Positions 9,802 to 37,419 of a stretch of 64,000 bases of DNA are shown here, one piece after another. The stretch is from Patescibacteria group bacterium. GTDB taxonomy: Bacteria > Patescibacteriota > Patescibacteriia > 2-01-FULL-39-33. The DNA lies in NCBI GenBank assembly GCA_041645075.1, contig JBAZQS010000002.1, forward strand, positions 693-64,692, read 5' to 3'. The notes beneath the pieces were generated by a model that was given only the letters and a program-made list of their open reading frames with translations, made no database searches and was not told the DNA's origin. The number at the start of each line of letters is the position of its first letter. The first letter of the stretch is position 1. A program made the position numbers and the translations under genes.

Positions 9802-11910
9802 ATGCCCGATGGCTCGAATCCGTTAAATTCAAATCAAGAAAATCAAAATATGGATTTACCCTTAAACCCAAAACCAAGTAAAGATAATTTAAAAAAATTG
9901 AATTTTTTTTCTAATTATCCAGCCAATAAAGACAACGGCAGCCAAGGCAAAAAAGGGTCCGCCAGCCGGCGGATTAGATTTTTTAGAAAAGAAGTCAGCA
10001 CCATGCAAGACGACATCGCTAACTTAATCGCCAGCAAAAATCGTAAGGCCGGTAAAAAAAATGGCGTATCAAACCAGCGCCGGGATATTCAAAGGAATTT
10101 AACCGAGGTCTATACGGACGGCGACGGCAAAATTCCCGATTTAACCAAATTAGAAAGAATTCAGCGGCCGCTCTGGAAAACCGTTTTGTATGTTTTAATC
10201 GCGGTCTTAGCTGTTTTACTTGTGGCGGCGATTGCCGGTTTTTACTTTTTCAATAATTTAAATAATCAGGATGCCTTTACCAATGAGAAAGTGGCTTTAA
10301 AAATTGAAACGCCGATCGCCATTGTTTCCGGCCAGGAAATGGTTTATACCATCACCATCACCAATAAGGAAAAAGTCAATTTATATAATGCCGAATTGGA
10401 ACTTTTTTATCCTGATAATTTTGAATATGTCTCGGCCGAGCCGGTCGCCCTGGGCGATAAGAAAAATACTTGGGATTTTGCGGTTATTAAAACCGGGGAA
10501 ACCCAGAAAATCCAATTAACCGGAAAAATTTTAGCGCCCCTCAATTCCACCCAAACCATCAAGGGCACGTTAAATTTTAAGCCCTCTAATTTAAACGCGA
10601 CCTTCAAGCAGGAGGCCATTGTTGATGTCGTGGTCTCGGCTTCAAATATTAGTTTGGATGTTACGGGTCCGGAAAAGACCTTAGCCAACCAGAAAGTGGA
10701 ATATGTTATAAAATATAAAAATACCGGCCAAGACGATTTATCCGACTTACAGTTGGTGGCGGAGTATCCGGACGGATTTGTTTTTAATTCTTCCGACCCC
10801 GAGCCCCAAAACGATAATGGCAATAATAATGTGTGGGCGATAAAGGCCTTAAAACAAAATGCGGAAGGGCAATTGAAAATAAAAGGAGATTATTCCGCGG
10901 TCCAAACCGGCGGCAACCGCGATTTCAAAGTTCGCGTTCAATTAAAAAAAGATAATGATTATTATCCGCAAAGCGAAACGTCTTTCGTGACCACGATTAT
11001 TAAAGACCAATTATCTTTGCAGTTGATTATTAACGGTTCGGCCGAAGACCAGCCGATTAATTTTGATGACCTGCTTGTTTATTCTTTGAGTTTTAAAAAT
11101 ACCGGACAGGAAGAACTGAAAGACATAAAAATTTTCGCTAATATGAATTCGCAGATTTTGGATTGGAATACTTTAAAAGACGACCGTCGCGGTTCAAGAT
11201 CGCAGAATTCCATTGTTTGGACGGGCAAAGAAGCGCCCAAATTGTTGAAATTGGCGCCGGGCGAAGAGGGCCAGATTAACTGGAGCATTAGAGTCAAGGA
11301 TTCATCGGTCATTAATGATAAAAATGTAAATAAATTCAATGTAGAGAGTTATATTGAAGGCCGGGCCAGTCAAAGCGGCGAGGCCAGCGGCGAATCAATA
11401 GTAAAAAGCAAAACCGTGGTTAATGCCATAAATTCCGATTTGGGCTTAAATGCTTACGCGCGTTATTATGATGAAGATAATATGGCCTTGGGCGCGGGCC
11501 CGATTCAGCCAACCGTTGGGGAAAAATCCAGTTATAATATCAAATTGGAATTAGCCAATAATTTGCATGATGTTAAGGATTTGCTGGTGGTGGCAACTTT
11601 GCCGAAAGGCGCGGAGTGGGCCGGCCAAGAAACACACACGGCCGGGGATTTGAATTTTAATCAGCAAGCAAAAAAGATAACCTGGACGATTTCTCGTCTC
11701 GCTAAATCAGCCAATAAGGTGGCTGCGACATTTAATGTCGGCCTTAACCCTGGCGATGATGATTTCGGCAAGGTCTTAATTTTAATTTCGGAAATTCAAT
11801 TGACGGGCAAAGACGCGGAAACCGGAGCCGATATCAGCAAGTCATTAAAAGCCATCACCACTTCTTTTGATGACCCGATTTTAGGTCAGGTGAGCGGGAT
11901 AGTGAAATAA
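9802..11910 (+). CDS. Surface protein with DUF11-type repeats, N-terminal TM anchor
   Basis: Repeated segments such as YTITITNKEKVNLYNAELELFYPDNFEYVSAEP and YVIKYKNTGQDDLSDLQLVAEYPDGFVFNSSDP. Confidence 0.6.
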   Translation: MPDGSNPLNSNQENQNMDLPLNPKPSKDNLKKLNFFSNYPANKDNGSQGKKGSASRRIRFFRKEVSTMQDDIANLIASKNRKAGKKNGVSNQRRDIQRNLTEVYTDGDGKIPDLTKLERIQRPLWKTVLYVLIAVLAVLLVAAIAGFYFFNNLNNQDAFTNEKVALKIETPIAIVSGQEMVYTITITNKEKVNLYNAELELFYPDNFEYVSAEPVALGDKKNTWDFAVIKTGETQKIQLTGKILAPLNSTQTIKGTLNFKPSNLNATFKQEAIVDVVVSASNISLDVTGPEKTLANQKVEYVIKYKNTGQDDLSDLQLVAEYPDGFVFNSSDPEPQNDNGNNNVWAIKALKQNAEGQLKIKGDYSAVQTGGNRDFKVRVQLKKDNDYYPQSETSFVTTIIKDQLSLQLIINGSAEDQPINFDDLLVYSLSFKNTGQEELKDIKIFANMNSQILDWNTLKDDRRGSRSQNSIVWTGKEAPKLLKLAPGEEGQINWSIRVKDSSVINDKNVNKFNVESYIEGRASQSGEASGESIVKSKTVVNAINSDLGLNAYARYYDEDNMALGAGPIQPTVGEKSSYNIKLELANNLHDVKDLLVVATLPKGAEWAGQETHTAGDLNFNQQAKKITWTISRLAKSANKVAATFNVGLNPGDDDFGKVLILISEIQLTGKDAETGADISKSLKAITTSFDDPILGQVSGIVK

Positions 11911-18842: not shown

Positions 18843-19472
18843 GTGGCGGCAGGCGGTAAAGATCGATTAGATCGCTTGGATCGAGCGGTCGGCAAATCAT
18901 TCAAGTTGATTTGGGGAAAACTCCAGCGCCTTGATCGCTGGGGCGAAAGACAATGGCGGGAATATAGAAATTTTTGGATTCGCAACATCTGGCACGGCGG
19001 CAGCAAACAGCTGACCAAGCCAAGAACGGGCAACCGATTTTGGGATTTCCTGCAAGGCCGATTTTATGATCTTTGCCGTTTTCTGGATTGGCTGGACACC
19101 ATTAGTTATTTCCGCGGCCGAATTTATCAGGCCAAGGCCTGCCGAGTAAGAAGCAAGGCGGAGAAAAAGATCGCCAATTATTTTACAGATCACGGCGTTA
19201 AATTCCAGTATGAAAAAAGGCTTTACCTCGGCCCAAGGTCATCCCGGCCATTTCGTCCAGATTTTTATCTTAGCGATTATGGTGTTTATGTGGAATACTG
19301 GGGCCTGGCAGACAGTGACCCGGATTACGACAGAAGACATCGTGTCAAGTTGGCTGCATACCATAAGCACAAGATTCCGGTTATTTCGATTTACCCGCGT
19401 CAACTCGGTAACCTGGAAAGAATTTTCCCCCAGCTTTTTCGAGAGATAACGGGCAGGGATTTTCCTGCCTAA
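18843..19472 (+). CDS. Hypothetical protein with a possible restriction-endonuclease-like (PD-(D/E)xK) C-terminal segment; GTG start
   Basis: AGGAGG RBS 8 nt upstream of the GTG. The pattern AEKKIANYF...RPDFYL...VYVEYWG resembles E...PD...E-x nuclease cores. GC-rich. Confidence 0.45.
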   Translation: MAAGGKDRLDRLDRAVGKSFKLIWGKLQRLDRWGERQWREYRNFWIRNIWHGGSKQLTKPRTGNRFWDFLQGRFYDLCRFLDWLDTISYFRGRIYQAKACRVRSKAEKKIANYFTDHGVKFQYEKRLYLGPRSSRPFRPDFYLSDYGVYVEYWGLADSDPDYDRRHRVKLAAYHKHKIPVISIYPRQLGNLERIFPQLFREITGRDFPA

Positions 19473-19605: not shown

Positions 19606-20547
19606 ATGATGAAGGTTCTCGTTACCATTGGCGCCATCATCCTGCTGGTGCTTATCACTCTGCCGTGGTCGCGCGACTACTTCAAACAGAGCCGCAACAA
19701 CGCCAATAACGCGTTTCGCGATCGGGTTAGTATCGAACAGAAAATCGCCGCTGCGAAGGAAGAGCTCGGGAAAGCCCAGGCTTATGTGACCGAGCAGTAT
19801 GCCAAGGCCATCGGGGGCAAACGCATGTTGGCCGAACAAGAAGCGGCTCTGGACGGCAAAAAGGGGGAATTGGGCGTGAAACAGCCCATTTTCCTACGTG
19901 CTTCGGAGTGGATAGAAAAGTACAAGCCAGGCGACACCTTGTCGCTCGGCCCTCAGACCTTTTCTTACGCCGAAGTGTGCACCGACGCTTCCAATCGAGC
20001 TAATGCGATTAAAGACCTGAAAGCCACCGTTAAGATCCTGAGCCAGGGCAGTGACAGGCTGCGCAACACCATCAACGACAGTGAAGCCAACGCCAAAGAA
20101 GCATTGCGTCAGATCGCTAAAAGGGAAGGCGAGCTTCAGGCTCAAGAAATCGCCTTGAGAACCTGGGAAATAATCCAGGCAAATGAGGCCGTGTGTAAAG
20201 GCATTGCCTTTAATGGCAAGATGCCATTTAATACGCGGCATCTCCAGGCGATTGATGAGGCGATGGACAAAATGAAGGCCTCCATAGAAACTTCAGCCTG
20301 GGTTAAGACCAATTCAGGCGGCATTCCTTATGAAGGACCTCAACCATCAAATCAGAATGAGCTGGAAAACATCAAGGCGACTCGCCAGATGATTACCGGC
20401 GTGGTCCCGACTCCGGAAGCGACTTCCGAACCGATGTCGCCGGCCGAAGCGGCCAGCGAAGCGCTTAGCCAGTTGCCCGAATCGGCCCTGAAGCAACCCG
20501 CCAGCAAACCGGCGATTGCCACCCCGGCCGCGACCCCTGTTCATTAA
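19606..20547 (+). CDS. Membrane-anchored coiled-coil protein (hypothetical)
   Basis: N-terminal TM, long helical region, Pro/Ala-rich C-terminus. GGAGG RBS. GC-rich with unusual codon use. Confidence 0.55.
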   Translation: MMKVLVTIGAIILLVLITLPWSRDYFKQSRNNANNAFRDRVSIEQKIAAAKEELGKAQAYVTEQYAKAIGGKRMLAEQEAALDGKKGELGVKQPIFLRASEWIEKYKPGDTLSLGPQTFSYAEVCTDASNRANAIKDLKATVKILSQGSDRLRNTINDSEANAKEALRQIAKREGELQAQEIALRTWEIIQANEAVCKGIAFNGKMPFNTRHLQAIDEAMDKMKASIETSAWVKTNSGGIPYEGPQPSNQNELENIKATRQMITGVVPTPEATSEPMSPAEAASEALSQLPESALKQPASKPAIATPAATPVH

Positions 20548-20754
20548 TTCAATCTCGCCAATAAGCCGTAGCTTACAGCCAAACAATGGTTACAACAGGC
20601 AGACATCTCTGCCTCAAGTAAATACCGCATGGGCAGCCCCATGTCTCGTTTGACCTAAGCTCCCTTAGAGCGAATGCTTTTAGGAGTTTTTTCCCACGGA
20701 CCAGATTACCTCATCTGTTCAATAAGAAAAAACTCCTTTTTTTATTTTGAGATT

Positions 20755-20802
20755 CCGCCGAATACCTCGTCCCGACGTAACGTCGGGGCGAGGATGAGGC
20801 GG
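20755..20802. repeat. Palindromic repeat family B (CCCGACGTAACGTCGGGG core)
   Basis: Nested inverted repeat. Related copies at 49913-49936 and 63054-63077. Confidence 0.6.
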
Positions 20803-21189
20803 AAGTTTATGATTTAATCTGTGAGCTTTTGCCGATTCGCCAACAGGCGAAAAAGGCAAAAGCGAACACTGATCAAAAGAGGATTCCAAAGGGGCGCCCC
20901 CTTTGGTCGGTGGGCGGGATCTAAATAACCCGCCCACCGAAACCTACTTTATTTTTAGTTTTAGTTAAAATATGAGATTGACAAAGGTTTATTTTAGTCC
21001 TACGATATTATCAGCGGCACCTTGACAATTAAATAAAATAAAGCATTAAATCAGTTAGATATAGCTAAAATTGGAGAAAGGAACGCGGTTTTGTTTGGGC
21101 GGTAAAAATCTCTAAATTAAAGTTTGATTTTTGGTTATCAACCAGATGACTCTTTAATGATACAAAGAACGAAAAAGGAGGAAAGGAAA

Positions 21190-23256
21190 ATGAAGGGTGT
21201 TAAGGGATTCGCGTTTAAAGCTCTGGGAGCTTTAGTTTTGGTTTTTGTCTTGTGCGGTTATTCCTGTAAAGGCAAGGTTAAGCCGGAGTCGCTGTTGACA
21301 CCAAGTTCGGTCGGTCCGGTGGCCATACCCCAAGAGGAAATGCCCAATATGGATAATCCGACCCAATGCCTAACCAATGAGAATGGCATTCGTCAGAAGG
21401 CGATTATTACTCGCCGCGGCGTTTCTTGCAGCCAAGAGCCGGGCGGCGTGGAAGATGGTTTTGATTTGGATTATTTCCATTCTTATTTCGTCTTTGAAAC
21501 CGTAGAGGTAAACGGCATCATTTATTATCGGGTTGGCATTACCCCCCGGCGGGCAAATATTAAGGGCTGGGTGTCCGGCGCCAAAGTCCAATTATGGGAT
21601 ACAGCGATCGGCGCCCGGTACGCGCGTCCGGAAAGTGACGATCCGGAAAAGAAAGTCAGCCAGATTCTGCCCCCGCTTTACGTGTATGGGGAAAAGGAAG
21701 ATTCAATCAAGGCAATTAAAAGCGAGTCGGTTGAACCGATTGCCCAGACCCTCTATGACTACAAGTACAAAACCCAAATGGCTTGGCCCATAACTAAGAA
21801 AGAAGAATTTCCTTTCCAGGGCAAGACCTATGAGGTTTTTCAGATCGCTTTCTTGAGTGAATACCCGCAGGGCGGCGATATTAACGCGCCCCCGCCGGTA
21901 ATTACGCCCACGGTTGTGAGAACGGAAAAGCAGAAACAAGTGAAAGAAGGCGTTAAGACGATTGATGTCGTTTTTGTGATTGACACCACGCTTTCCACGA
22001 CGCCGTATATTGAAGCCGTCAAAGAGACGATCCGGAAAATTATGAACAGCTTGAATGGTATTAGCGCCGGTTCATTTAAACCGGACATCGCTTTCGGGCT
22101 GGTTGAATACCGCGATTTCGTCGACGGGCTTTACTTTAATGATAATGGCGCACAGAAGGTTTATCGGCTGTTCCAATTAACTAAGGATGCCCAGGCGTTT
22201 CTTAACCGCATTAATATTGTTAAGTCCGCTGGCAAATCCAGTGAGGGCTGGCAGGAAGCGGTTCTTGATGGTTTAAAAGCGGGTTTGATGGAAATCAGTT
22301 GGAGCAATGATTATTCGGAAAGGATATTGATTCTGATCGGAGATAATTCCGGCCACTCATCGGATTCGCCGGAAATTAAGACGGGCAGTAAAAGTCCGAA
22401 TAATATTTCGGTTGGCGATATTACCGTTTTAGCCAGTCGTAACCGGGCCACTATTTTTTCTTTGTTGGTTAAAAACCAAGCCGAGGCGGCCGAAGTGGCT
22501 CGTCACCTTAATCAGTTTACCGAGTTTGCGGAAAAAACCGGCGGTAAATGTTTTCCTTTGGAAGTGGTCGGCGAGATGGTTGGTTTGGTTTCTAACCGTA
22601 TTATTGACCCTAAAATCCAGGAAGCGGAAATCGGTACGGAAGTGGTGACGGCTAAACTTCGTGGCAGCTCGGAATCAGCCATTAAGGAAAAAGTCGGCGA
22701 GAAGCAATATGTGGAAGTGATGAAATGGCTTAGCAAGCGCAACATCACTGACCGCGATTTAAAACCGGGGGAAATTTTCTTTTCTACCGGTTGGGTGGTT
22801 TCTGAAGCGGGCGGCGTTAAGATTCTGGCCAAAGAGGCCTATATGGCCCGTTCGGAATTGAATCTGCTTTTGACCAATCTTCAGTCACTCAAAGATTTCT
22901 TAGCCAATCCTAAGGCCTCGGTTTCACTGATTGCCGCTGCATATTTTCCTCGTGTTCGAGAGAATATGCCGAATGTTGTTCGAGAGAATATGCCGAATTT
23001 CCTCGGCGAGGAGATTTCCTTGCCCATGAATGTTTGGCTGCAAATTAAGGGCATTCCCTTGTCCGAATACAGCATCTTGAAATTCAATAAGTCAATATTG
23101 GAACAGATGCCGGAGGAGACCAGGCGGACGATCAAACAACGGATCACGACTCAATGCCTGCCGGCGTTGATGAATGATTATAATGATTTTATCCGCTTTT
23201 CCAATCAGGATGATATAAACAGCTTTGGCTGGGTGAGGGAAAAATACCTGCCCTAA
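21190..23256 (+). CDS. Secreted/lipoprotein-like VWA domain protein
   Basis: Signal peptide MKGVKGFAFKALGALVLVFVLCGYSC. DVVFVIDTTLST (MIDAS-like) and ILILIGDNSGHS segments typical of vWA. RBS AAAGGAGG. Confidence 0.65.
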   Translation: MKGVKGFAFKALGALVLVFVLCGYSCKGKVKPESLLTPSSVGPVAIPQEEMPNMDNPTQCLTNENGIRQKAIITRRGVSCSQEPGGVEDGFDLDYFHSYFVFETVEVNGIIYYRVGITPRRANIKGWVSGAKVQLWDTAIGARYARPESDDPEKKVSQILPPLYVYGEKEDSIKAIKSESVEPIAQTLYDYKYKTQMAWPITKKEEFPFQGKTYEVFQIAFLSEYPQGGDINAPPPVITPTVVRTEKQKQVKEGVKTIDVVFVIDTTLSTTPYIEAVKETIRKIMNSLNGISAGSFKPDIAFGLVEYRDFVDGLYFNDNGAQKVYRLFQLTKDAQAFLNRINIVKSAGKSSEGWQEAVLDGLKAGLMEISWSNDYSERILILIGDNSGHSSDSPEIKTGSKSPNNISVGDITVLASRNRATIFSLLVKNQAEAAEVARHLNQFTEFAEKTGGKCFPLEVVGEMVGLVSNRIIDPKIQEAEIGTEVVTAKLRGSSESAIKEKVGEKQYVEVMKWLSKRNITDRDLKPGEIFFSTGWVVSEAGGVKILAKEAYMARSELNLLLTNLQSLKDFLANPKASVSLIAAAYFPRVRENMPNVVRENMPNFLGEEISLPMNVWLQIKGIPLSEYSILKFNKSILEQMPEETRRTIKQRITTQCLPALMNDYNDFIRFSNQDDINSFGWVREKYLP
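22954..23001 (+). repeat. 24-nt in-frame tandem duplication inside the VWA gene (VRENMPNV/VRENMPNF)
   Basis: gttcgagagaatatgccgaatgtt occurs twice. Confidence 0.8.
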
Positions 23257-23328
23257 GCTGATTAATCCGGGGAAGGCCTCGCAAATAAGCAACCTTCCCC
23301 GGAAACGTAAACTCAAACCAAGAAAAGG

Positions 23329-24114
23329 ATGAAACTCATGGAACCAGTGGTAGAGAGAGAAACAATGAAAAAAAAACTAACATGGTATCCGACTTTTGTC
23401 TTGCAAAACGTTAGTAAATTTTTTACCGTCGGCGGAGAAACAATTAAAGCGGTTGGTAATGCCTCGGTTTCAATTCCTTCTGGATGTATTACTGGGATTA
23501 TAGGCGAAAACGGTTCCGGCAAAACCACTTTATTGCATTTAATGGGCGGGCTCTATAAACCCGACCGTGGCCGGATTTATTACTATCATCCTGAGTACAA
23601 ACGTTATTTCCTCATACCGTATAACAACAAAAAATATATGCAGTATTTTTTGCGCCATCAGGTCGCTTGGATTTTTCAGAAATTAAATCTGATTTCACAT
23701 TTGACGGTTTGGCAAAATATCGTATTGCCGCTTTTCTTGAAAGGACAGTCCTATAAAAAAGAGGAGATTATCAAGCTTTTAAAAATACTGCGCCTGATCG
23801 ATCCGGAAAGAAATATTAATTTAATGAATAAGCGGCCGGAACAGCTTTCCAGCGGCGAGCAGCAGCGCGTAGCCATTGCTCGAGCTTTGGTGGCCAGGCC
23901 GCAGGTGATTTTGGCCGATGAGCCGACCGGCAACCTTGACTTGCGAAACCGCGATGTTTTTATGGAGATTCTTAAAGCGGCAAACCGAGATTACGGTATT
24001 ACAGTCGTTTTAATTACGCAGGAAGTTAGCTTGGTGAAGAAGTACTGCCATGCCTGTATTCTGTGTGAAAAATCCAATCAAGGAAATATTTGCGGTCAGC
24101 TGCAATGGCTTTAA
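23329..24114 (+). CDS. ABC transporter ATP-binding protein (MacB/FtsE/LolD-like)
   Basis: Walker [10 protein letters not shown], signature [15 protein letters not shown], Walker [12 protein letters not shown]. Start may be 23338 or 23353. Confidence 0.85.
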
Positions 24115-24149
24115 AATCCCACGCAGATTACTAAAGGGAGGTAAGATAA

Positions 24150-27100
24150 ATGAGAGGGTCAGATGATGGTATTTATGTTAGACCAATTAAACCGAAAGAT
24201 CGCGATAAAGAGCCGGGAGCGATTAAAACATTGCGGTATACTATTTCCTATATCCGCTTTAACTTTTTTGCTTTCTTGCTTAATATTTTGACGATTGGCA
24301 TTGCGGGAATTTCGATTATGGCCTTTGGCTATCTGGCTTATGCCGGCTATCAGGAAGCGCGGAGTAAACTGGAAAATAGTCAGACCAAAAAAATTATCGT
24401 CAGCTGTGTGGCTGATGAACGGCTTGATGAGACCAAGCGGTTTAATGCCAAGAAAATTGAAGAAATGAAAAAATTGCCTTGGGTGGTTGTCGCTTTTGAA
24501 CGGGTCTGCCAGAATGTTTATTTAAATATCTCCGGCGGCGACCCAAAATTGTCTTACATTGAAGGCACGATTCCCCATGACCCAGAAATTGACCCATTGT
24601 CAATGGAATGGGGCGGCGGTGTCAGTTCGCAGGACTCGGAAGAAATCGTCGTTACCTCATCGCTTTTAGATGAGCTTATCCGGCCGGCAATGGGGCGCGC
24701 TGGCGAATCAAGGGCTTTGCGACCGGAGGTGATTCGTTTGACGGTCAGAAGAACGGCCGGCAACGAAGAAAAAGATTTCCGCCGCGAGTACCAATTGGTC
24801 GGTGTCTTGAACAGCAAAATCAAGAAGGCCTTTATTCCGTTACGGCAAGCCAAATATCTGGAAATGTGGTGCGGCAGCAAGATTGACGACATGCCCGTGG
24901 TAGGCGGCAAAATTTCTCAACCGGAGATTGAAGTCAAAACCGGCCGCCTGTATGTTTCCAGTAATATCAGCGGAGAGACCCTGGATCAGGCCAAGAAGCA
25001 TTTCCAAATTGACCTAAAAGAAATTTTTTCTTATCGGGAGCCGGTTATCGGCGACATCGGCGAGATGAGAATTTTCCGAAAAGATAATCAGGCATTTTAT
25101 AACGCGGATATCGCCAAATTACAGAGCTTATTGCCAAATGATGTTAATATTTTTTCGGGCAATCAGGTTAAGGCGACATTTCGACTGGAACAGCGTGAAG
25201 TAAAAGGAGCAATCCTGCAGGCATTTTCCCTAAACGATCCACGTTTACGGAATTTAAAAATGATGGACAACAAAGGCATTGATACGGCCATCACCTCTCT
25301 TTACAGCGTGGTTATTTCCAAAGATCTCGCCAGCCGGCATTTGCCTTATGGCCTTGAGTCCCAGCCGGATTTAGTAGTGGAAATCGGACCGTTTCCGGTT
25401 AGCCTGAAAATTGTCGGCGCTTCCGAGGGCTATATTAACGATACGCCTTTTGACGCCTTATGCAGCCTTGATACTTTCAATTGTTTAAATCTGAACGTGG
25501 AATTAAAGAAGTTTTGCTTGGTGGTCATGACCAATCGGGCGACCGCTAAGCGGCTGAAAAACGGCGACTATCCAGTGAAAAAGGGCCAAACAGCCAAGAC
25601 CTTTCCGATTATTGAAAAGAAAATCAAAACTTGGGATTCCGACCCAAGTTCTAAGACGGTTCATTCTGCTGCCGGCGCGGATCGGAGAGATTCGGCCACC
25701 GCCCAAATAAATTCTTCTAACTCGTCTTTTGATGCGGGAGATTATTGCGCGATTGCCGCTCTGGAAGGCGATCGCGGCTCAATCAGTAAATTCATTAAAG
25801 ATCATTTCAACGACCCAAAGGTTGAAGTCATTGAACTCTCGGTTGTTGGCAACTGCAAGGTCTTAAGCGGCGACAAGACCAGAGAAGCAGAAATCGCTTT
25901 TTGCAATCCGGAAGAAATCAGTCATAGTCAATTGCCTTGGGCCTACCGGAGTTATCCTCTGGAAAGTGGCTCTGGTCTGGCAAGCGAAGAGGATTTTCCG
26001 TCGGATTATTCAATTGGGATAGGCGATACCCGCCTTGATTTGGTAAAAATTGACCAGGTCTTTCCGCGCGGGTACATTCTAGTCGGTCAAAAAAAGATGT
26101 CGGTTTTACTTCCCGGTCTGCAGAAACTTGAGGCAAAAAAAAGTACTGACGGAGAATATTTACCCGGCTTCCTTGATGTAACCATTAATAATCCGGTTAG
26201 TTATGAAAACGTGAAAGCGGCGATTGAGGGGCAGGGGCTTATCGTTAAAGAAGTCCGGGTGCCAAAAAACATCCAGGTGACTTGTTACCAATTCAGTTCG
26301 CTTCAGCCAGATGGGAAAATCAGCCGCCAATTAATTTCTTCTTTAAAGGCCGATAGAACATTTCTTGATGTTTGCCCCGAGATTAAAATTGAAGCGGCAA
26401 TCGGCGGCCTGCCACTGGAAAATAAATTTTCTTTTATCGGCAGTTACGTTGATGACCGGATCAAAACAAACATACCGGTTAAACTTGGCGGTTGGCTTAC
26501 CGGCTCGTCGCCTAATGAAGTGATGTTGCCGGAAAAAATGCTGGCAAACACCTCTAAGGATCCGAAAAATTTGATTGGTGAAAGCGTGACTCTGATATTT
26601 GAACGCCAAGTCAAGAGGTCCTACGGCGAGCCAACACTAGACGTTAAATGCGCTGTGGCCGGAATCACCACTGACGATCATGGCTATCTGCCCTTGGATC
26701 TGGTGAAAAGGGCTTACCTCTGGCAAACCGGTCGTCTGCCCTACAACGAGCGCAGTGGCACCTTCGTCAGCTCGGAAAACCTTTACGATAAATCCGGCCA
26801 CGAGTCGTGCAAGATCTACGTCAGAAATATTGCCGACGTTCGGCCGGCCGTTAACTACTTGCGCCAAGACCTTGGCTATGATACGGAAGATTATCTAAAA
26901 GATCAAGAACGAATTCGCGAGCTGGGCCGGATTTTGACTTTCTTGGTGATGATGATTGTTGTTGGCAACGTGATTTCCGGCATTCTTAATGTCGTGATCA
27001 CCACCTTAATGAACACCAAAACCAGGATTTATGAAATCGGCATCTTGCGGGCTCATGGCGCCAGCAATCGGTTGATTAAACGGATTTTTTTCCAACTCGG

Positions 27101-27362
27101 CTTAATGATGGGATTCGCCTCCTTTGCGGTTGCTTTTGCGGCCGCACCGCTGGTAATCGAACTGATCGCTTTTTCAATCAAGAAGGCCTTCTCAGTTGAG
27201 CTGACCAGGATTATGTCGGTCCCGTTTATCAGTTTTGATTACTGGTGGCTGCATTTGCTTGGACTGTTAATTACGGTTTTGTTCTGTGTCTTCGGCGTAT
27301 TTTGGTCAGCGCTTTTGGCCTGCAAAACGCCAATTGTTAAGGCCTTAATTTCCGGAAAATAA
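24150..27362 (+). CDS. MacB/FtsX-type ABC permease with a giant (~800 aa) extracytoplasmic domain
   Basis: N-terminal TM, a long soluble domain, and a C-terminal FtsX-like 3-TM module containing IYEIGILRAHGAS. AAGGGAGG RBS. Confidence 0.7.
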   Translation: MRGSDDGIYVRPIKPKDRDKEPGAIKTLRYTISYIRFNFFAFLLNILTIGIAGISIMAFGYLAYAGYQEARSKLENSQTKKIIVSCVADERLDETKRFNAKKIEEMKKLPWVVVAFERVCQNVYLNISGGDPKLSYIEGTIPHDPEIDPLSMEWGGGVSSQDSEEIVVTSSLLDELIRPAMGRAGESRALRPEVIRLTVRRTAGNEEKDFRREYQLVGVLNSKIKKAFIPLRQAKYLEMWCGSKIDDMPVVGGKISQPEIEVKTGRLYVSSNISGETLDQAKKHFQIDLKEIFSYREPVIGDIGEMRIFRKDNQAFYNADIAKLQSLLPNDVNIFSGNQVKATFRLEQREVKGAILQAFSLNDPRLRNLKMMDNKGIDTAITSLYSVVISKDLASRHLPYGLESQPDLVVEIGPFPVSLKIVGASEGYINDTPFDALCSLDTFNCLNLNVELKKFCLVVMTNRATAKRLKNGDYPVKKGQTAKTFPIIEKKIKTWDSDPSSKTVHSAAGADRRDSATAQINSSNSSFDAGDYCAIAALEGDRGSISKFIKDHFNDPKVEVIELSVVGNCKVLSGDKTREAEIAFCNPEEISHSQLPWAYRSYPLESGSGLASEEDFPSDYSIGIGDTRLDLVKIDQVFPRGYILVGQKKMSVLLPGLQKLEAKKSTDGEYLPGFLDVTINNPVSYENVKAAIEGQGLIVKEVRVPKNIQVTCYQFSSLQPDGKISRQLISSLKADRTFLDVCPEIKIEAAIGGLPLENKFSFIGSYVDDRIKTNIPVKLGGWLTGSSPNEVMLPEKMLANTSKDPKNLIGESVTLIFERQVKRSYGEPTLDVKCAVAGITTDDHGYLPLDLVKRAYLWQTGRLPYNERSGTFVSSENLYDKSGHESCKIYVRNIADVRPAVNYLRQDLGYDTEDYLKDQERIRELGRILTFLVMMIVVGNVISGILNVVITTLMNTKTRIYEIGILRAHGASNRLIKRIFFQLGLMMGFASFAVAFAAAPLVIELIAFSIKKAFSVELTRIMSVPFISFDYWWLHLLGLLITVLFCVFGVFWSALLACKTPIVKALISGK

Positions 27363-27374
27363 GGAGGAAGTAAA

Positions 27375-28208
27375 ATGAATCAAGAAGAACATGACCAAAA
27401 CGAAGGATTACCTTCAATTCCAATTAAGACCCCTGAAGCAGAACCCGATCGCGAACCGATTTTGCTTAAACCCATGTTCTCGCCGTTTTTGAGGAAGAGG
27501 CAGAAAAGTTCGTGGTCCGCTTTTCAGATCATCGGTCAGTTGATTATCATCGCCGGTTTTTTCTCGGCGGGCTGGATCGCGCATGATTATCGGTCGCAGC
27601 TGAAACCACTGATTAATAAAATTAATCCGTCGCCCGCGCCAACACCTGAACCGTTTATTGAGTTAAACAAATCGCTGGTTGTGGCCATGCTCTCGGAAAT
27701 CAACGCCGAGCAGAAGCGAGTCAGTGATGATAAATACGGATTGCAAGATAGGATTGACCGGTGCGATTTAACCTGGAAGGTTTTGAGAAATTCCGGTTAC
27801 ACTAAGGATTCAAATGAATGTAAGGGAATCTTCAAAGAAGCCCGGGAGCTTAAGAGGGGTTTGATTCAGAATAATCAACAGCTGGCCAAACTCAATAAAG
27901 CGGCCGATGGCTTGCGCGATGTGCTTCAGGACATTCGTTTGAAGGGCTATGTTATCAATAATCCGAAAACCCAGAAGTTGGTTTCTAATGTTGAGATTGC
28001 TCTGGGCGTCCGCCAGGGTCTTAATGAAGATGGCGGCGGATTAATTTCAGACCGAGATTGGAATGGCGAGGACCCCGACGAATTTATGAAGGGCCTTAAA
28101 AATAGCGGTCTAGAAAAACCGGTTGTCACTCCGTCATCGGTTCCGGTTGCGACCCAGTCGCCGGCTTCAAAAATTCCCGTCGCGGTGCCGATAACCGGGA
28201 ATCAGTAA
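27375..28208 (+). CDS. Hypothetical membrane-anchored protein
   Basis: GGAGGAAG RBS, one TM, Pro-rich C-terminus. Confidence 0.5.
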   Translation: MNQEEHDQNEGLPSIPIKTPEAEPDREPILLKPMFSPFLRKRQKSSWSAFQIIGQLIIIAGFFSAGWIAHDYRSQLKPLINKINPSPAPTPEPFIELNKSLVVAMLSEINAEQKRVSDDKYGLQDRIDRCDLTWKVLRNSGYTKDSNECKGIFKEARELKRGLIQNNQQLAKLNKAADGLRDVLQDIRLKGYVINNPKTQKLVSNVEIALGVRQGLNEDGGGLISDRDWNGEDPDEFMKGLKNSGLEKPVVTPSSVPVATQSPASKIPVAVPITGNQ

Positions 28209-28368
28209 CGTTCTTTTTTGACCGTTCTTTATCAATATCAACAGTCCAGTACTAAAAGTGCTGGACTTTTTATTTATATTTAATGCCTTGACAACCAGGG
28301 TAATTAAGCGTAAATTGAAATGAAACGAATGGTTTTTTGACAATTAATTATTATCAGGAGGAAGATAA

Positions 28369-28824
28369 ATGAGCCGCAGAAAAAGGAAATCAAACTTATT
28401 TCGATTCCCGACCAGTAAGTGGTGGCGTCGCGGCCAAGCCTTAGCCGATTTTTTAGGCGGTATGATTTTTGGCCTGGCGGAACAATTGGCTGGCTGGCTG
28501 ATTAGGTTTTTTAAGTTTTTTGGGCGGGTAATCTATTGGTTAATAATCAAGATTCCGGGTCGTAAGAAGAAAGACACGAGACAAAACGAAATCCAGCCAG
28601 AAAAAAATTTACCGAAAGAAACTGCCAGTCCTTTGGCGGACTGGCCGCCTCAAGCCCAAGAGGCCATTGCCGCCTTAATTTCTTTGGGGGTGGCAAAAGC
28701 AAACGCCGGCCCGGCCATTGCCAAGGCCCGGGCTAACCTTGGGTCAGGCGCTTCAACCCAGGATTTAATTAGAGAAGGTCTGAAATACCGACGCGGAATA
28801 TCGGAGATGGGAGCGGAAAAATGA
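28369..28824 (+). CDS. Small membrane protein with a RuvA domain-III-like (UBA-like) C-terminus
   Basis: AQEAIAALISLGVAKANAGPAIAKA...TQDLIREGLKY resembles the RuvA C-terminal domain. Confidence 0.45.
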   Translation: MSRRKRKSNLFRFPTSKWWRRGQALADFLGGMIFGLAEQLAGWLIRFFKFFGRVIYWLIIKIPGRKKKDTRQNEIQPEKNLPKETASPLADWPPQAQEAIAALISLGVAKANAGPAIAKARANLGSGASTQDLIREGLKYRRGISEMGAEK

Positions 28825-29477
28825 TTGGCGATAAAAATTTTTGGCTTTCAGTTATGATTTTTATAGTTGCTTGGTATTTATGGAAAAGCTTGTTGATGTA
28901 TCCGTTGCGGCTGTTGGTCACTCTACTTCATGAAAGCGGCCACGCCTTAGCCGCGGTTTTGACCGGTGGCGCCACGGAATTTATCAGTGTTGATATTCGT
29001 GGCAATGGCCGCGCGGTAACCAAGGGCGGGATCCGGCTGGTCATTTTAAACGGTGGCTATTTGGGCAGCGTGATTCTTGGCGTTTTTGTCTACCTTCTGC
29101 CTTATGGCCGATTTGGCCGCTATGCCCTAATGATTTTAGCCGCCTTGCTTTTGCTGATTGCCATTTTGTGGATCAGGGACTTTTTTACTATGATTTTTTC
29201 GCTCGGCTTAGGTCTGGGACTGGTTTTAATCAATTTATCGGTCTCCAATTCTTCCGCCATGCTCGTCGCCAAGTTTATCGGTTCTTGCTGTATTCTTTAC
29301 TCGGTGTTAAATATTGATTTCCATTTTCGTTACGGCAGGATGTTCTTTAACCGCCAAACCGACGATCAGGAATTGGCAAAATTAACAAAAATACCTGCCC
29401 GCCTTTGGCAGTTGGTCTGGCTCATTATTTCTCTGGTTATTTTTCTGCTCCTTACCAAGTCCACCCTAATGGAATAG
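28821..29477 (+). CDS. M50B-like integral membrane zinc metallopeptidase
   Basis: HESGHALAAVLTGG HExxH motif in a TM helix. ATGA overlap with the upstream gene. Confidence 0.6.
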   Translation: MIGDKNFWLSVMIFIVAWYLWKSLLMYPLRLLVTLLHESGHALAAVLTGGATEFISVDIRGNGRAVTKGGIRLVILNGGYLGSVILGVFVYLLPYGRFGRYALMILAALLLLIAILWIRDFFTMIFSLGLGLGLVLINLSVSNSSAMLVAKFIGSCCILYSVLNIDFHFRYGRMFFNRQTDDQELAKLTKIPARLWQLVWLIISLVIFLLLTKSTLME

Positions 29478-29560
29478 GGCGATGCCCAAATTTTTGCTTT
29501 AGCAAAAATTTTATTCCACAGGGTGAACCCTTAACGGTGTTTATTAGTAGCATTTATTAA

Positions 29561-29600
29561 GTCCGGACCGAGAGTGGTGCCGGACTTTTTAATTTTTTTT
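29561..29600 (+). terminator. Rho-independent terminator after the 21.2-29.5 kb operon
   Basis: gtccggaccgagagtggtgccggac hairpin followed by a T-run. Confidence 0.6.
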
Positions 29601-35804: not shown

Positions 35805-36485
35805 ATGATTCATTTAATCAAAGTAACAAAAAAATTTGAGGGCGAGACCGTGGCCCTAAAGGAGGTCGCGCTTCATATTGAGCCCGGCGAGTTTGTTTCT
35901 ATTGTCGGCCAGTCGGGCTCGGGCAAAACCACCATTATCCGCTTATTGATCGCGGAAATCAGGCCGACCGCCGGTAAAATTATTATCGGCGGCTGGGATA
36001 TTACCGATATCAAACGCCGTCAAATTCCCATATTGAGGCGGCAAATCGGCGTAGTATTTCAGGATTTTAAATTATTGCCCAAAAAAACGGTATTTGAAAA
36101 TGTGGCCTTTGCCTTGCAGGTTTCCGGCAGCGCCAAAAGCCGCATCAATAAAATTGTGCCGCAGGTTTTAAAAATCGTGGATTTGGAAGATAAGACGGGC
36201 CGGTATCCGCAAAATTTGTCGGGCGGCGAAAAGCAAAGGGTGGCGATTGCCCGAGCCCTGATTCATCGGCCGAAAATATTATTAGCCGATGAGCCGACCG
36301 GCAATTTAGACGCCTTAAATTCAAAAGATATTATTGATTTGCTTTTGAAAATCAATGATTTCGGCACGACCGTGGTTTTGGTTACCCACAATAAAGATAT
36401 TGTTAATTCGTTAAGAAAACGAGTCATCACTCTTGAGCGCGGCGTCGTTATCCAAGACCAGAAAGTGGGAAAGTATGTTTTATAA
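35805..36485 (+). CDS. ftsE: Cell division ATP-binding protein FtsE
   Basis: [35 protein letters not shown]. Confidence 0.85.
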   Translation: MIHLIKVTKKFEGETVALKEVALHIEPGEFVSIVGQSGSGKTTIIRLLIAEIRPTAGKIIIGGWDITDIKRRQIPILRRQIGVVFQDFKLLPKKTVFENVAFALQVSGSAKSRINKIVPQVLKIVDLEDKTGRYPQNLSGGEKQRVAIARALIHRPKILLADEPTGNLDALNSKDIIDLLLKINDFGTTVVLVTHNKDIVNSLRKRVITLERGVVIQDQKVGKYVL

Positions 36486-36495
36486 ATTATAAACC

Positions 36496-37419
36496 TTGAT
36501 TATGTTATTAGTCGCCATACACCGAAGCGTGCTTTTCGCCCTCCAATCATTTTGGCGAAATTTTTGGCTGTCTCTGGCCACGATTTTTATAATTTTTTTG
36601 GCGTTTGTCTCAATTAATTTTTTAATTTTTCTCAGCGCCGTCTCTGATTCGGCCATAAACGCGGTCAAGGAAAAAATTGACGTGTCAATATATTTCAAGC
36701 CCGATATCAGAGAAAGCAAAATCAACGAAGTCAAATCGCATTTAGAGACCTTGTCCCAGGTAAAAGAGATTACTTATCATTCTTCGGCGCAAAATTTGGA
36801 AAGTTTTACCCAGCGCCACGCCAGTGATGCGGTCATCAGCGATACCTTAAAAGAATTGGCGGGCAATCCGCTGGGCGCCACTTTAATTATTAAGGCGAAA
36901 GAATTATCCGATTATCCCGAGATATTAAAGGCCGTGGACAATCCCGCCTATAATGAATTAATTGAAGAGAAAAATTATGACGACCATCGCGTCGTCATAG
37001 ACCGCATTAACAGCATTACCAACAACATCAGGCGAGGCGGGCTGATTATCAGCTTGATATTTGTGATCATCGCCATTCTCATTGTTTTTAATACCGTAAG
37101 AATCGCGATTTTTACCCATCAAAATGAAATCAGCATTATGAAACTGGTGGGCGCGAGCAATTGGTTTATCCGAGCGCCATTTATATTGGAAAGCATATTT
37201 TCCGGCGTGATTGCCTGTTTATTGGCCGTGGCTTTGGTGTATCCCGTCTTATCGTTCATCCAGCCCCATCTTGCCAATTTTTTTGACGGCGCCGCTTTTG
37301 ATCTGGTCGGCTATTTTAATCAGCGCTTCTTGCTTATTTTCGGCGGCCAGCTCTTGGGAATTATTCTTTTAAATATTATTGCCAGCAGCTTGGCTATTGG
37401 AAAATATTTGAAGGTCTAA
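36496..37419 (+). CDS. ftsX: Cell division permease FtsX
   Basis: MKLVGASNWFIRAPF motif; 4 TM. Confidence 0.85.
   Translation: MIMLLVAIHRSVLFALQSFWRNFWLSLATIFIIFLAFVSINFLIFLSAVSDSAINAVKEKIDVSIYFKPDIRESKINEVKSHLETLSQVKEITYHSSAQNLESFTQRHASDAVISDTLKELAGNPLGATLIIKAKELSDYPEILKAVDNPAYNELIEEKNYDDHRVVIDRINSITNNIRRGGLIISLIFVIIAILIVFNTVRIAIFTHQNEISIMKLVGASNWFIRAPFILESIFSGVIACLLAVALVYPVLSFIQPHLANFFDGAAFDLVGYFNQRFLLIFGGQLLGIILLNIIASSLAIGKYLKV

Follow-up and report, generated by a model that had tools for sequence, protein, structure and literature searches.

What is the function of a gene cluster in which a von Willebrand-type (VWA) protein, a MacB/FtsX-type ABC module and an M50B-like membrane protease are encoded side by side in an ultra-small Patescibacteria bacterium? 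The cluster lies in a window of 64,000 nt, the whole stretch that was analysed (assembly GCA_041645075.1, contig JBAZQS010000002.1, positions 693-64,692, forward strand), and its features are numbered from the first letter of the window. The original prediction described an envelope block of six same-strand genes (g1-g6); all six are real genes, and two further ORFs upstream, u1 and u2, also belong, giving a cluster of eight genes (Table 1). The domains proposed for the six genes are upheld by Pfam (VWA, ABC_tran, FtsX, RuvA_C and Peptidase_M50B), with g4 having no Pfam family, and the combination corresponds to no named system in the protein-family libraries or the literature searched. The cluster is rare but conserved, and we tentatively favour, at somewhat less than an even chance, the reading that it is an undescribed dedicated type VII (MacB/FtsX-fold) ABC mechanotransducer and not a solute transporter, with the VWA protein and a coiled-coil protein as its partners outside the membrane. 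If true, it would be a variant of those envelope machines by which force or signals are relayed from one side of the membrane to the other.

Table 1. Features of the cluster and its surroundings, in window coordinates.
Feature	Position	Strand	Evidence
u1, 209-aa T7-endonuclease-I-like protein (PD-(D/E)xK fold), no TM segment	18843..19472	+	Pfam Phage_endo_I 28.6 bits, below cut-off 29.1
u2, 313-aa TM/coiled-coil protein	19606..20547	+	TM at residues 1-23
Intrinsic terminator after u2	20682..20750	+	25-nt arms then T-run; inverted repeat, fold
Four further GC-rich hairpins in array	20751..20930	+	Within 642-nt u2-g1 spacer
Promoter-like site TTGACA-17-TACGAT	20978..21006	+	Upstream of VWA gene
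g1, 688-aa membrane-tethered extracytoplasmic VWA protein	21190..23256	+	Pfam VWA 24.1 bits
GC-rich stem-loop, 11 bp, without T-run	23266..23303	+	Between VWA and ABC genes
g2, ABC ATPase, FtsE/LolD/MacB type	23329..24114	+	Pfam ABC_tran 112 bits
g3, 1070-aa type VII ABC permease	24150..27362	+	FtsX C-terminal domain 34 bits, residues 935-1061 (Pfam)
g4, 277-aa bitopic helical protein	27375..28208	+	TM prediction
Intrinsic terminator after g4, strong	28243..28277	+	11-bp stem then T-run
Promoter-like site TTGACA-17-TAAATT	28288..28316	+	Upstream of g5-g6
g5, 151-aa RuvA-domain-III-like protein	28369..28824	+	Pfam RuvA_C 36.8 bits
g6, 218-aa polytopic M50B-like metalloprotease	28821..29477	+	Pfam Peptidase_M50B 131 bits; TM prediction
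Intrinsic terminator after g6	29560..29600	+	Downstream of g6
Canonical ftsE/ftsX pair	35805..37419		FtsX_ECD domain in FtsX

Conservation and genomic setting

The permease family is rare and patchy, with 67 representative clusters (E <= 1e-30) among 1.84 billion proteins. The VWA, ABC and FtsX genes lie next to one another in the window and at the loci L002, L003, L006, L009, L010, L091, L092, L093, L094, L096 and L098/L099; in L005 the contig ends after VWA-ABC, in one relative the VWA gene adjoins a fused ABC-FtsX protein, and in L011 the three genes are in divergent orientation. An AAA+ or RuvA_C-like gene and an M50B gene follow in the window, L001, L002, L009 and L098/L099, and the contig of L096 breaks off after the AAA+ gene. 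The predicted link of the ABC module to the VWA and M50B proteins thus recurs in independent loci, which contradicts the lack of co-occurrence in other genomes that the original prediction had named as grounds for dropping it. The u1/u2 pair accompanies the block in four lineages, before or after it. A chance arrangement of unrelated transporter, VWA and protease genes would fit the fact that each domain is common by itself and that terminators divide the block into several transcription units, but it is hardly credible: the gene order is identical in independent metagenomic loci at 25-66% permease identity, and u1/u2 stay attached though their position is permuted. These synteny data contradict chance, and since the order is kept down to 25% permease identity, the coupling of the genes is not accidental.

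The GC content of the block had been thought to set it apart from its neighbours. The difference is marginal (0.459 versus 0.408 for the window) and, given a per-ORF standard deviation of 0.06 and DnaB and FtsE genes that equal the block in GC richness, the block is not an outlier. Likewise, the duplication scar proposed at the nearby tRNA-Lys was not recovered, as no second tRNA-Lys 3' end occurs in the window, even at 3 mismatches. A genomic island at tRNA-Lys is not supported: neither an att repeat nor an integrase is present, and the GC shift is marginal. Downstream of tRNA-Lys there is a weak repeat of 35 nt (71%).

The VWA protein and the ABC module

The g1 protein comprises a signal/lipobox, a disordered linker of ~40 residues, a beta-rich N-domain, the VWA domain and a helical C-domain, and the VWA domain carries a MIDAS-like DxTxS...D motif conserved among homologues. 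It has an N-terminal anchor, but the lipobox implied by its original description as a lipoprotein departs from the canonical form (FVLC or GYSC). Canonical lipoboxes (LVGC and VAGC) occur in the homologues of L002 and L003, and g1 is a probable lipoprotein.

The ATPase g2 scores ~148 bits against the NCBIfam FtsE and LolD families, under their cut-offs, and the motif alignment shows that it has kept Walker A, the signature and Walker B intact. ATP turnover may be impaired or slow, because the H-loop His, present in all homologues compared, is a Gln in g2. The permease g3 has a predicted 1+3 topology, with one TM helix, an extracytoplasmic domain of ~850 residues (66-923) and three further TM helices, and its model adopts a MacB/FtsX (type VII ABC) fold. 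The outside domain holds an internal duplication; in the model it appears as two lobes, consisting of two modules like the MacB periplasmic domain, ferredoxin-like inserts and a flexible linker. Against PDB sequences, the permease family profile matches YtrF (1.3e-22), LolF/LolE (~4e-12) and MacB (2e-5). YtrF of the Bacillus subtilis YtrBCDEF system, in which it pairs with YtrE, is nevertheless only 436 aa long, and the ytr operon, as outlined in the sources cited, has no VWA, M50B or nuclease-like gene (PMC8060467; PMC12772383).

This similarity raises the possibility of an extractor or exporter like LolCDE or MacB, in which a membrane or periplasmic substrate (a lipid, a peptide or a lipoprotein, either the VWA protein or a different one) would be pulled out and handed outward along the tall outside domain. 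LolF, LolE and LolC are the nearest sequence matches after YtrF, LolE/LolC are the top NCBIfam matches of g3, the VWA protein is probably a lipoprotein, and the stem-loop after its gene, also found in L002, L009 and L091, suggests that, as expected of a substrate, more of it is made than of the pump. We nonetheless consider export unlikely: the NCBIfam scores for Lol reach 30-33 bits where the cut-offs stand at 362-540, the cluster lacks a LolA/LolB-like acceptor, an HlyD-family adaptor and an outer-membrane channel such as TolC, and the VWA homologue P0005 has a plain TM anchor instead of a lipobox. The g3 outside domain also differs from LolCDE and MacAB in that the periplasmic-domain-like module is duplicated in one chain.

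The g4 protein and the comparison with FtsEX

The g4 protein is predicted to have a cytoplasmic N-tail, a TM segment (50-70), an extracytoplasmic helical region and a Pro/Ser/Thr-rich tail, and alignable homologues follow the permease in eight loci (L001, L002, L003, L009, L089, L090, L096 and L098). Being helical and extracytoplasmic, with its gene immediately behind that of the permease, a frequent position for EnvC-like partners, g4 could take the place of EnvC/PcsB in a second FtsEX-like regulator of cell-wall remodelling, with the beta-rich VWA N-domain binding the wall; the surrounding region also holds divIC, an RlpA-like gene and ftsEX. Such a role is very unlikely, however, given that no cluster protein has a LytM, amidase, CHAP or NlpC/P60 domain and that g3 scores 14-21 bits against NCBIfam FtsX (cut-offs 225-255). 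Pfam finds no FtsX_ECD domain in g3, unlike in the canonical FtsX encoded 9 kb downstream, and the outside domain of g3 measures ~850 residues versus roughly 100 in FtsEX-EnvC and FtsEX-PcsB. The organism retains, as originally noted, a separate canonical FtsEX.

The AAA+/protease pair and the nuclease-like protein

The g5 protein consists of a basic/hydrophobic N-terminal anchor (~65 residues) and a RuvA-domain-III-like C-terminal domain. Its N-terminus is homologous to that of AAA+ ATPases at the equivalent position in L002, L009, L096 and L098, and position five in most relatives is a membrane-anchored AAA+ ATPase, whose place in the window is taken by a RuvA_C-like domain. The HExxH motif of g6 (residues 37-41) is conserved in four homologues. 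In L002, L009, L096 and L098 the gene of a membrane-anchored classic-clade AAA+ protein immediately precedes that of an HExxH membrane protease, an arrangement reminiscent of FtsH, whose family the AAA+ proteins of L002 and L009 match at 1e-48 to 2e-51. Unlike in FtsH, the two activities sit on separate proteins, the protease belongs with M50B and not M41, and the window has the RuvA_C-like domain without an AAA+ module.

Upstream, u2 has a TM/signal anchor at its N-terminus, followed by a long helical/coiled-coil stretch and a tail rich in Pro, Ala, Ser and Thr; family searches returned only coiled-coil noise, and homologues were found in L002 (x2, E 7e-33), L009 (9e-7) and L098 (d3, 9e-14). 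Among PDB sequences, T7 endonuclease I (2pfj, 1m0d) is matched by the u1 family profile at E 4e-4, over the catalytic core (E...PDF...VE). The u1 protein differs from the phage enzyme in an additional Arg/Trp-rich N-terminal region of ~95 residues and in being chromosomal and not found in the phage collections searched. Genes placed after M50B in L002, L009 and L098 encode proteins with 63%, 42% and 40% identity to u1.

A nuclease-like protein in the cluster brings to mind a conflict or defence system, in which the outside parts would sense phage adsorption or an envelope breach and AAA+/M50B would free or activate u1 as a cytoplasmic, DNA-acting effector. In PADLOC, where u1 has matches to nuclease domains only, its nuclease domain matches the candidate defence domains PDC-S69 (4e-15), HEAT_CxxC_PD-DEXK and PDC-S68, u1 is the best-conserved cluster protein (63% to L002 versus 29-44% for the others), the AAA+ proteins match IetA, though more weakly than FtsH or CDC48, and a rare and patchy family would be in keeping with such a role, as would TagQRST-PpkA, the nearest architectural analogue, which senses envelope attack. 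Defence is still distinctly unlikely, since none of the six core proteins has a system-level match in PADLOC, and the catalytic Lys (Lys67 of T7 endonuclease I) is a Trp in all four u1 homologues, in u1 itself within YVEYWG. Moreover, L003 has the VWA-ABC-FtsX-g4 core without nuclease, AAA+ or protease, the neighbouring genes are housekeeping genes, and the cluster was not found in the plasmid and viral collections searched.

A proposed type VII ABC mechanotransducer

The Pfam FtsX domain, the PDB profile matches, the 1+3 topology, the duplicated outside domain, the VWA motif and anchor, and the gene linkage together suggest the mechanotransducer reading. Of the mechanisms offered originally, both mechanotransmission to the VWA protein and export are reasonable proposals. 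A g2 dimer, with its motifs in place, would cycle ATP in the cytoplasm; the four-helix g3, given its modelled fold and duplication, could pass this cycle through stalk helices into the outside domain, which may move and, as the strict gene adjacency hints, act on or be acted on by the tethered VWA/MIDAS protein g1 and the bitopic g4. The likely output would be control of VWA-domain binding at the cell surface, or the sensing of contact or of an event in the envelope. In the clade with the giant domain, this core is joined by four more components: AAA+, M50B, the endonuclease-I-like protein and a second coiled-coil membrane protein. The membrane-anchored AAA+ unfoldase (RuvA-domain-III-like here), translationally coupled to M50B, could act with it as a split FtsH-like pair, whose task is probably to process or remove some component of the membrane.

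Distant g1 homologues occur in clusters of VWA, ABC, FtsX (405 aa) and FGE-sulfatase genes. With the FGE-sulfatase family, which we take to be that of TagR from a COG1262-to-domain mapping, these have the domain set of Pseudomonas TagRST/PpkA. The latter is part of TagQRST-PpkA, the threonine-phosphorylation sensor of the Pseudomonas aeruginosa H1-T6SS, which, like the cluster, combines an FtsX/LolE-type permease, an ABC ATPase and an extracytoplasmic VWA domain. TagS, TagT and TagR belong to COG4591, COG1136 and COG1262, respectively (PMC13584744); TagTS is an ABC-transporter-like complex of an envelope-damage signalling pathway (PMC7817224; PMC13584744), whose kinase, PpkA, carries a VWA sensor domain outside the cell (PMC3224232). 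Every characterised type VII ABC system relies on an extracytoplasmic partner, namely EnvC, LolA, MacA-TolC or TesA (PMC12646458). By analogy, the partnership of g3 with g1 and g4 may resemble that of FtsEX acting via EnvC, or of TagTS with the VWA sensor domain of PpkA. On the other hand, the VWA protein of the window lacks a kinase domain, Fha, PppA, TagQ, TagR and T6SS genes are missing from the cluster, the outside domain of its permease is ~four times larger, and its output side is made up of a protease, an AAA+-like and a nuclease-like protein. Pairwise, the permeases at TagRST-like loci are no more similar to g3 (E 0.015-0.3) than the window's own FtsX is, which is nothing specific, so the TagTS link rests on the VWA protein and the shared architecture. 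Several points count against a mechanotransducer: turnover may suffer from the Gln in g2, the cluster lacks a kinase, a cell-wall hydrolase, an HlyD-type adaptor and a LolA-like acceptor, conserved terminators divide its parts between transcripts, and an envelope role leaves u1 unexplained.

Transcription and translation signals

The original prediction envisaged a single operon with a Shine-Dalgarno sequence before every gene, spacers of 0-70 nt and flanking promoter and terminator. GGAGG-type Shine-Dalgarno sequences do precede all six genes, and the outer boundaries were confirmed by the promoter-like site before g1 and the terminator after g6. The spacers from g1 to g6 are in fact 72, 35, 12, 160 and -4 nt, the last being the overlap of the g6 start with the g5 end, and the 160-nt gap after g4 contains an internal terminator and promoter, a feature conserved in three loci: the terminator is kept in L001 and L002, where TTGACA sites also lie at the equivalent place before g5-g6. 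Because the terminators are conserved, the parts of the cluster do not form one transcript. The hairpin array between u2 and g1 matches no Rfam family, and the region 20670-20960 has a folding energy of -137 kcal/mol (z = -12.1).

Gene organization and transcription units

The region examined holds six ORFs, all on one strand, which encode a VWA protein (g1), an ABC ATPase (g2), a giant FtsX-type permease (g3), a bitopic helical protein (g4), a RuvA-domain-III-like protein (g5) and an M50B-like protease (g6). Family-profile searches (Pfam) bore out the domains assigned to all six genes in the original prediction, and GGAGG-type ribosome-binding sites were found upstream of each, as it had also held. 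Its single tight operon with spacers of 0-70 nt had to be given up: the spacers measure 72, 35, 12, 160 and -4 nt, the last being a 4-nt overlap of g5 and g6, and the 160-nt gap downstream of g4 contains a strong intrinsic terminator followed by TTGACA-17-TAAATT. Since a terminator followed by a promoter also occurs at the g4/g5 junction of the related metagenomic loci L001 and L002, the split after g4 is a conserved feature and not noise. In the window, L002, L009 and L091, the VWA gene is also followed by a stem-loop. To judge from these sequence signals, the block appears to be divided into several transcription units, with read-through possible.

The 642-nt spacer between u2 (the gene of a TM/coiled-coil protein) and the VWA gene carries five successive near-perfect hairpins (MFE -137 kcal/mol, z = -12.1), the first of which is a terminator; the other four matched no Rfam family. 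Terminator stems of the form GTCCAG...CTGGAC (or GTCCGG...CCGGAC), followed by TTTTTAT, are common to the window and related loci and look like a lineage-typical form.

Features of the cluster, its surroundings and related loci
Feature	Source	Position	Strand	Length	Description
DUF4012 protein	window	6009-8834		941 aa	large neighbouring gene
DUF11 surface-repeat protein	window	9802-11910		702 aa	large neighbouring gene
u1	window	18843-19472	+		directly upstream of the six genes
u2	window	19606-20547	+		directly upstream of the six genes
Hairpin array	window	20670-20960			five hairpins
Six-gene block	window	21190-29477	+		g1-g6
g1	window	21190-23256	+	688 aa	VWA
Tandem duplication	window	22953-23000			within g1
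g2	window	23329-24114	+	261 aa	ABC_tran, 112 bits
g3	window	24150-27362	+	1070 aa	FtsX C-terminal domain match limited to last ~130 residues
g4	window	27375-28208	+	277 aa	no family
Terminator stem	window	28243-28277			in the gap after g4
g5	window	28369-28824	+	151 aa	RuvA_C, 36.8 bits, residues 96-139
g5 N-terminus	window	28369-28500			bacteriocin-like stretch, not significant
g6	window	28821-29477	+	218 aa	Peptidase_M50B, 131 bits; HExxH at 37-41
Terminator stem	window	29560-29600			
ftsE/ftsX	window	35805-37419			canonical pair
AddA-type UvrD helicase	window	46091-49117		1008 aa	with PD-(D/E)xK nuclease domain
AT-rich region	window	59934-61291			compositional outlier
Terminator stem	L001	4381-4412			
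Terminator stems	L002	7676-7710, 9704-9735			
Terminator stem	L091	3393-3428			
Extra gene	L098	15837-16724		295 aa	membrane protein

Conservation and extent of the cluster

The permease family is rare: an exhaustive HMMER search of 1.84 billion representatives yielded 248 proteins at E <= 1e-3, of which 67 reached E <= 1e-30, and 36 of the 66 best representatives have at least 900 aa. Word-indexed searches with the permease returned only g3 itself and one 66% relative. When gene neighbourhoods were compared across relatives, the core gene order was found to be kept in independent loci, a synteny that contradicts a chance adjacency of the genes, which is highly improbable.

Related loci, with permease identity to g3
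Locus	Identity	Gene order
L001	66%	ABC, FtsX, g4, g5, M50B
L002	29%	VWA, ABC, FtsX(1076), g4, AAA+, M50B, x1, x2
L009	25% and 31% over two segments, no end-to-end value	as L002, FtsX(1192)
L096	33%	VWA, ABC, FtsX(1048), g4, AAA+, then contig end
L098/L099	25%	VWA, ABC, FtsX(1032), g4, AAA+, M50B, d1 (extra gene), x1, x2
L089, L090	about 32%	ABC, FtsX, g4
L091	partial	VWA, ABC, FtsX

The six predicted ORFs stand, but the extent of the block does not, since homologues of u1 (a T7-endonuclease-I-like protein) and u2 accompany the cluster in L002, L009 and L098. In these loci, u1 is respectively 63%, 42% and 40% identical to its homologue x1, and u2 matches x2 at E 7e-33, 9e-7 and 9e-14. The pair lies downstream of the M50B gene in all three and upstream of the VWA gene in the window; because it stayed attached through this rearrangement, there is good evidence that both genes are part of the system. 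A shorter-permease form, consisting of VWA, ABC, FtsX (about 700 aa) and g4-like genes without AAA+, M50B or x1/x2, is found in the high-GC loci L003, L010 and L011, several of them labelled Planctomycetota. Loci of the cluster itself carry Patescibacteria labels and, in the case of one MAG, the label DPANN archaeon.

That archaeal label belongs to L009 (contig JAUXAV010000018.1, binned as Candidatus Aenigmatarchaeota), where a complete eight-gene version adjoins the gene of a HerA-like ATPase that has a winged-helix domain; either a bacterial contig was mis-binned or the genes passed between ultra-small bacteria and archaea. L098, the most distant complete locus, has an extra membrane protein between M50B and the u1 homologue that matched no family. 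In the locus of P0049 (JGI 3300047160), a 1332-aa relative, ABC ATPase and FtsX permease are fused as in MacB, directly downstream of a VWA gene.

The permease and its ATPase

In the predicted topology of g3, a single TM helix precedes an outside domain of about 850 residues, and three more TM helices follow it; this 1+3 arrangement, the FtsX C-terminal domain and the large extracytoplasmic domain between TM1 and TM2, which has a Porter/Sabre-type periplasmic core, are those of a type VII ABC permease. Its AF2 model, built on an alignment of 33 family members, has a mean pLDDT of 84 and a pTM of 0.54, which leaves the domain packing uncertain. Residues about 135-260 and 760-878 are homologous in profile-profile comparison (98% probability, E 3e-14), so the periplasmic core module is duplicated in one chain; between the copies lie further alpha/beta modules and a disordered linker (493-530), a stretch missing from the 700-aa relatives. 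The permeases of this cluster type, 1000-1370 residues long, have two to three times the length of the matched solved type VII permeases.

The partner g2 is an FtsE/LolD-like ATPase. Its Walker A, signature and Walker B(-Glu) motifs are intact; Gln replaces the H-loop His found in L001, L002, L003, L006, L009 and the window's own FtsE. The H-loop, near residue 228, reads ITQE, while a 77%-identical fragment from L001 has His, and the replacement is a single third-position change. Judged from the sequence, it could be a genuine drop in ATPase rate or an assembly error.

Sequence-profile matches of g3 are strongest to YtrF (1e-22), followed by LolF/LolE (4e-12) and MacB (2e-5), and a Lol/MacB-like extractor or exporter is a rather unlikely explanation of the cluster. 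Scores stay far from those of LolCDE components (LolE 32.9 bits for g3 against a cut-off of 540, LolD 147.6 for g2 against 307.75), and there is no LolA/B-like acceptor among the cluster genes; as for MacAB-TolC, neither the cluster nor the related loci contain an HlyD-family adaptor, and g4 gave no HlyD, biotin-lipoyl or barrel-domain match. An FtsEX-like regulator of wall remodelling is improbable: the cluster is without any hydrolase partner, g3 has no FtsX_ECD match, and its NCBIfam FtsX scores are 14-21 bits against cut-offs of 225-255. The canonical ftsE/ftsX genes noted earlier from the sequence were confirmed elsewhere in the window, with an FtsX_ECD domain present, so the block is a second FtsX-type module.

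The VWA protein and the TagQRST-PpkA pathway

The hydrophobic N-terminus of g1 leads through a disordered linker into a beta-rich domain, which is followed by the VWA domain and, at the C-terminus, by a helical domain; the protein has the Rossmann-like VWA/integrin I-domain fold with a MIDAS, and the MIDAS-like motif DxTxS...D is conserved in the family. A canonical lipobox in two homologues and a TM anchor in one indicate that the family is membrane-tethered and outward-facing. Within g1, an in-register 24-nt tandem duplication (96% identical) gives VRENMPNV-VRENMPNF; P0004, 78% identical to g1, has this VRENMPN-type repeat in one copy only. Identification of g1 as TssR of the Bacteroidota T6SS-iii was rejected, with TssR_VWA at 23.3 bits (below 25.7), covering only profile positions 36-169 of 304 and equally partial in homologues, and the TssR N-barrel at E 0.072.

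The resemblance to the TagQRST-PpkA pathway is one of architecture only: an FtsX-type ABC pair and an extracytoplasmic VWA domain are present, whereas no VWA-fused Ser/Thr kinase, Fha/PppA, TagR (FGE-sulfatase) or TagQ was found among the eight cluster proteins and the scanned flanking and other large ORFs of the window. An FGE-sulfatase, the family that we take COG1262 to be, occurs only in the distant loci L092-L094. The g1 relatives there are more distant, and their alignments with g1 span the beta and VWA domains (E 1e-15 to 1e-21). Their clusters encode a TM/helical protein together with VWA, ABC, FtsX (about 405 aa) and FGE-sulfatase proteins, the last being absent from the otherwise similar L006; several VWA proteins of these clusters are named PpkA by JGI. 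In P. aeruginosa, the kinase PpkA lies downstream of TagR (COG1262), TagS (COG4591) and TagT (COG1136) (PMC13584744); its extracellular sensor is a single VWA domain (PMC3224232), and the pathway detects envelope damage (PMC7817224). The same four domain families are thus neighbours in both systems. Orthology of g3 to the small FtsX of TagRST-like loci was rejected, there being no specific pairwise similarity, and the suggested link to TagRST-PpkA is based on VWA homology and shared architecture.

Helical, AAA+, protease and nuclease-like components

Both g4 and u2 are bitopic with long helical outside regions, matching one another at best at E 1e-4 over 83 residues of coiled coil, and the u2 tail has a high content of Pro, Ala, Ser and Thr. 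Neither is supported as a PspA/ESCRT-III partner of a Vps4-like AAA+ protein, as PDB profile searches gave coiled-coil noise only and the single weak PspA_IM30 match, in one homologue, reached E 0.002 and 18 bits against 33.9.

The first ~65 residues of g5, with the motif MxRRxR...KWxRRG and then hydrophobic helices, are common to the AAA+ proteins of L002, L009, L096 and L098. Downstream of this shared N-terminus, g5 has a RuvA-domain-III-like domain, whereas the other four have a classic-clade AAA+ module, whose matches are to FtsH (1e-48 to 2e-51) and also to CDC48, PAN and CdvC. The AAA+ protein is the common state at the fifth position; the RuvA_C-like form is seen only in the window and in L001, and the unfoldase has been lost in the window. 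The g5 protein is not a RuvA, for it has domain III only, with domains I and II (OB, HhH) unmatched and TIGR00084 ruvA at 21.9 bits against 85. Within g5, residues 16-42 (SKWWRRGQALADFLGGMIFGLAEQLAG) bear a faint, non-significant similarity (E 0.14) to the part of the class IIa bacteriocins curvacin/sakacin A that lies at their C-terminus and inserts into membranes.

The g6 protein matches Peptidase M50B-like (PF13398) at 131.4 bits against a cut-off of 26, over profile positions 3-200 of 201, and its HExGH, which falls in a TM helix, is kept in four homologues. The AAA+/M50B pair is like a split FtsH and probably serves to process or clear a membrane component.

The u1 protein can be aligned with T7 endonuclease I, a junction-resolving PD-(D/E)xK nuclease, over the catalytic core (E 4e-4), with a Pfam score marginally below the family cut-off. 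Its E107, D140 and E151 are aligned and W153 takes the place of Lys67, leaving the full catalytic set (E, D, E, K) incomplete; the Trp is invariant in all four homologues. Three Holliday-junction themes meet in these clusters: the RuvA-domain-III-like domain, the endonuclease-I-like protein and an AAA+ protein whose RuvB_N match is faint. An envelope-triggered defence system with u1 as its effector is quite unlikely: cluster proteins matched no system-specific PADLOC model, g2 gave generic ATPase matches only, and u1 and the AAA+ proteins gave nuclease-domain or AAA-domain matches only. A known defence system was rejected on these generic matches, the mad3 match of g2 being ordinary ABC similarity.

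Proposed mechanism and significance

The reading that we favour, tentatively, is that the cluster encodes a type VII ABC mechanotransducer. It draws on folds in the models, motifs, topology and conserved adjacency, from which we infer every interaction, the direction of signalling and the output. ATP cycling by g2 would act through g3 to move its very tall, two-lobed outside domain, which would have the tethered VWA protein and the coiled-coil g4 as partners and would either control binding at the VWA site or report a surface event.

A broader and doubtful proposal makes the eight genes one trans-envelope device of ultra-small episymbionts, in which a surface VWA receptor and a giant ABC-driven tower would detect or enforce contact with another cell or an envelope breach, and in which a split FtsH-like AAA+/M50B protease, together with an endonuclease-I-like DNA-binding protein, would act on the signal inside. 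If true, the cluster would represent a contact-sensing, DNA-handling or defence machine of a new kind, with the Pseudomonas TagRST-PpkA pathway as its distant, kinase-wired cousin.

As originally suggested, the combination is not a named system in Pfam, NCBIfam, PADLOC or the literature searched. As a type VII ABC system it is of a known kind; the partner set, the duplicated and greatly expanded outside domain, the AAA+/RuvA_C-like swap and the attached nuclease-like gene are new. Characterised type VII ABC systems each perform a different mechanical work outside the membrane (division, lipoprotein sorting, efflux, lipid hydrolysis), to which the cluster would add a VWA/MIDAS partner; unexpectedly, it would also couple such a system to an intramembrane protease, to an AAA+ unfoldase and to a nuclease-like protein. 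The same domain set without a kinase or T6SS would offer a comparative handle on what TagTS and the PpkA VWA domain sense. Little is known of the surface machinery with which Patescibacteria live on host cells, and among them the cluster is a concrete candidate for a part in host contact or envelope surveillance.

Genomic setting

The cluster lies on a 79-kb MAG contig labelled Patescibacteria group bacterium by NCBI, with generic gene names only, among housekeeping genes (DnaB, aminoacyl-tRNA synthetases, GMP synthase, DivIC, P-type ATPase). The distinct GC content and the duplication scar at tRNA-Lys that had been reported did not survive: the block's GC of 0.459 is unremarkable beside the window's 0.408, given a per-ORF SD of 0.06, and no further copy of the tRNA-Lys 3' end occurs anywhere in the window. 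A genomic island at tRNA-Lys was rejected, with no tRNA 3'-end repeat, no integrase and GC within about 1 SD; I1 and D14, which seemed to be flanking repeats, are promoter-like sequences rich in AT. A phage or plasmid origin was likewise rejected, as plasmid and viral-contig collections gave no g3 relative; u1 gave weak nuclease-core matches only.

The window's most GC-rich ORF is u2 (GC 0.54, GC3 0.64). The very AT-rich region near the end of the window stands out more strongly in composition than the six-gene block does: its ORFs have a GC of 0.25 (GC3 0.18-0.25), compared with 0.41 in the window as a whole.
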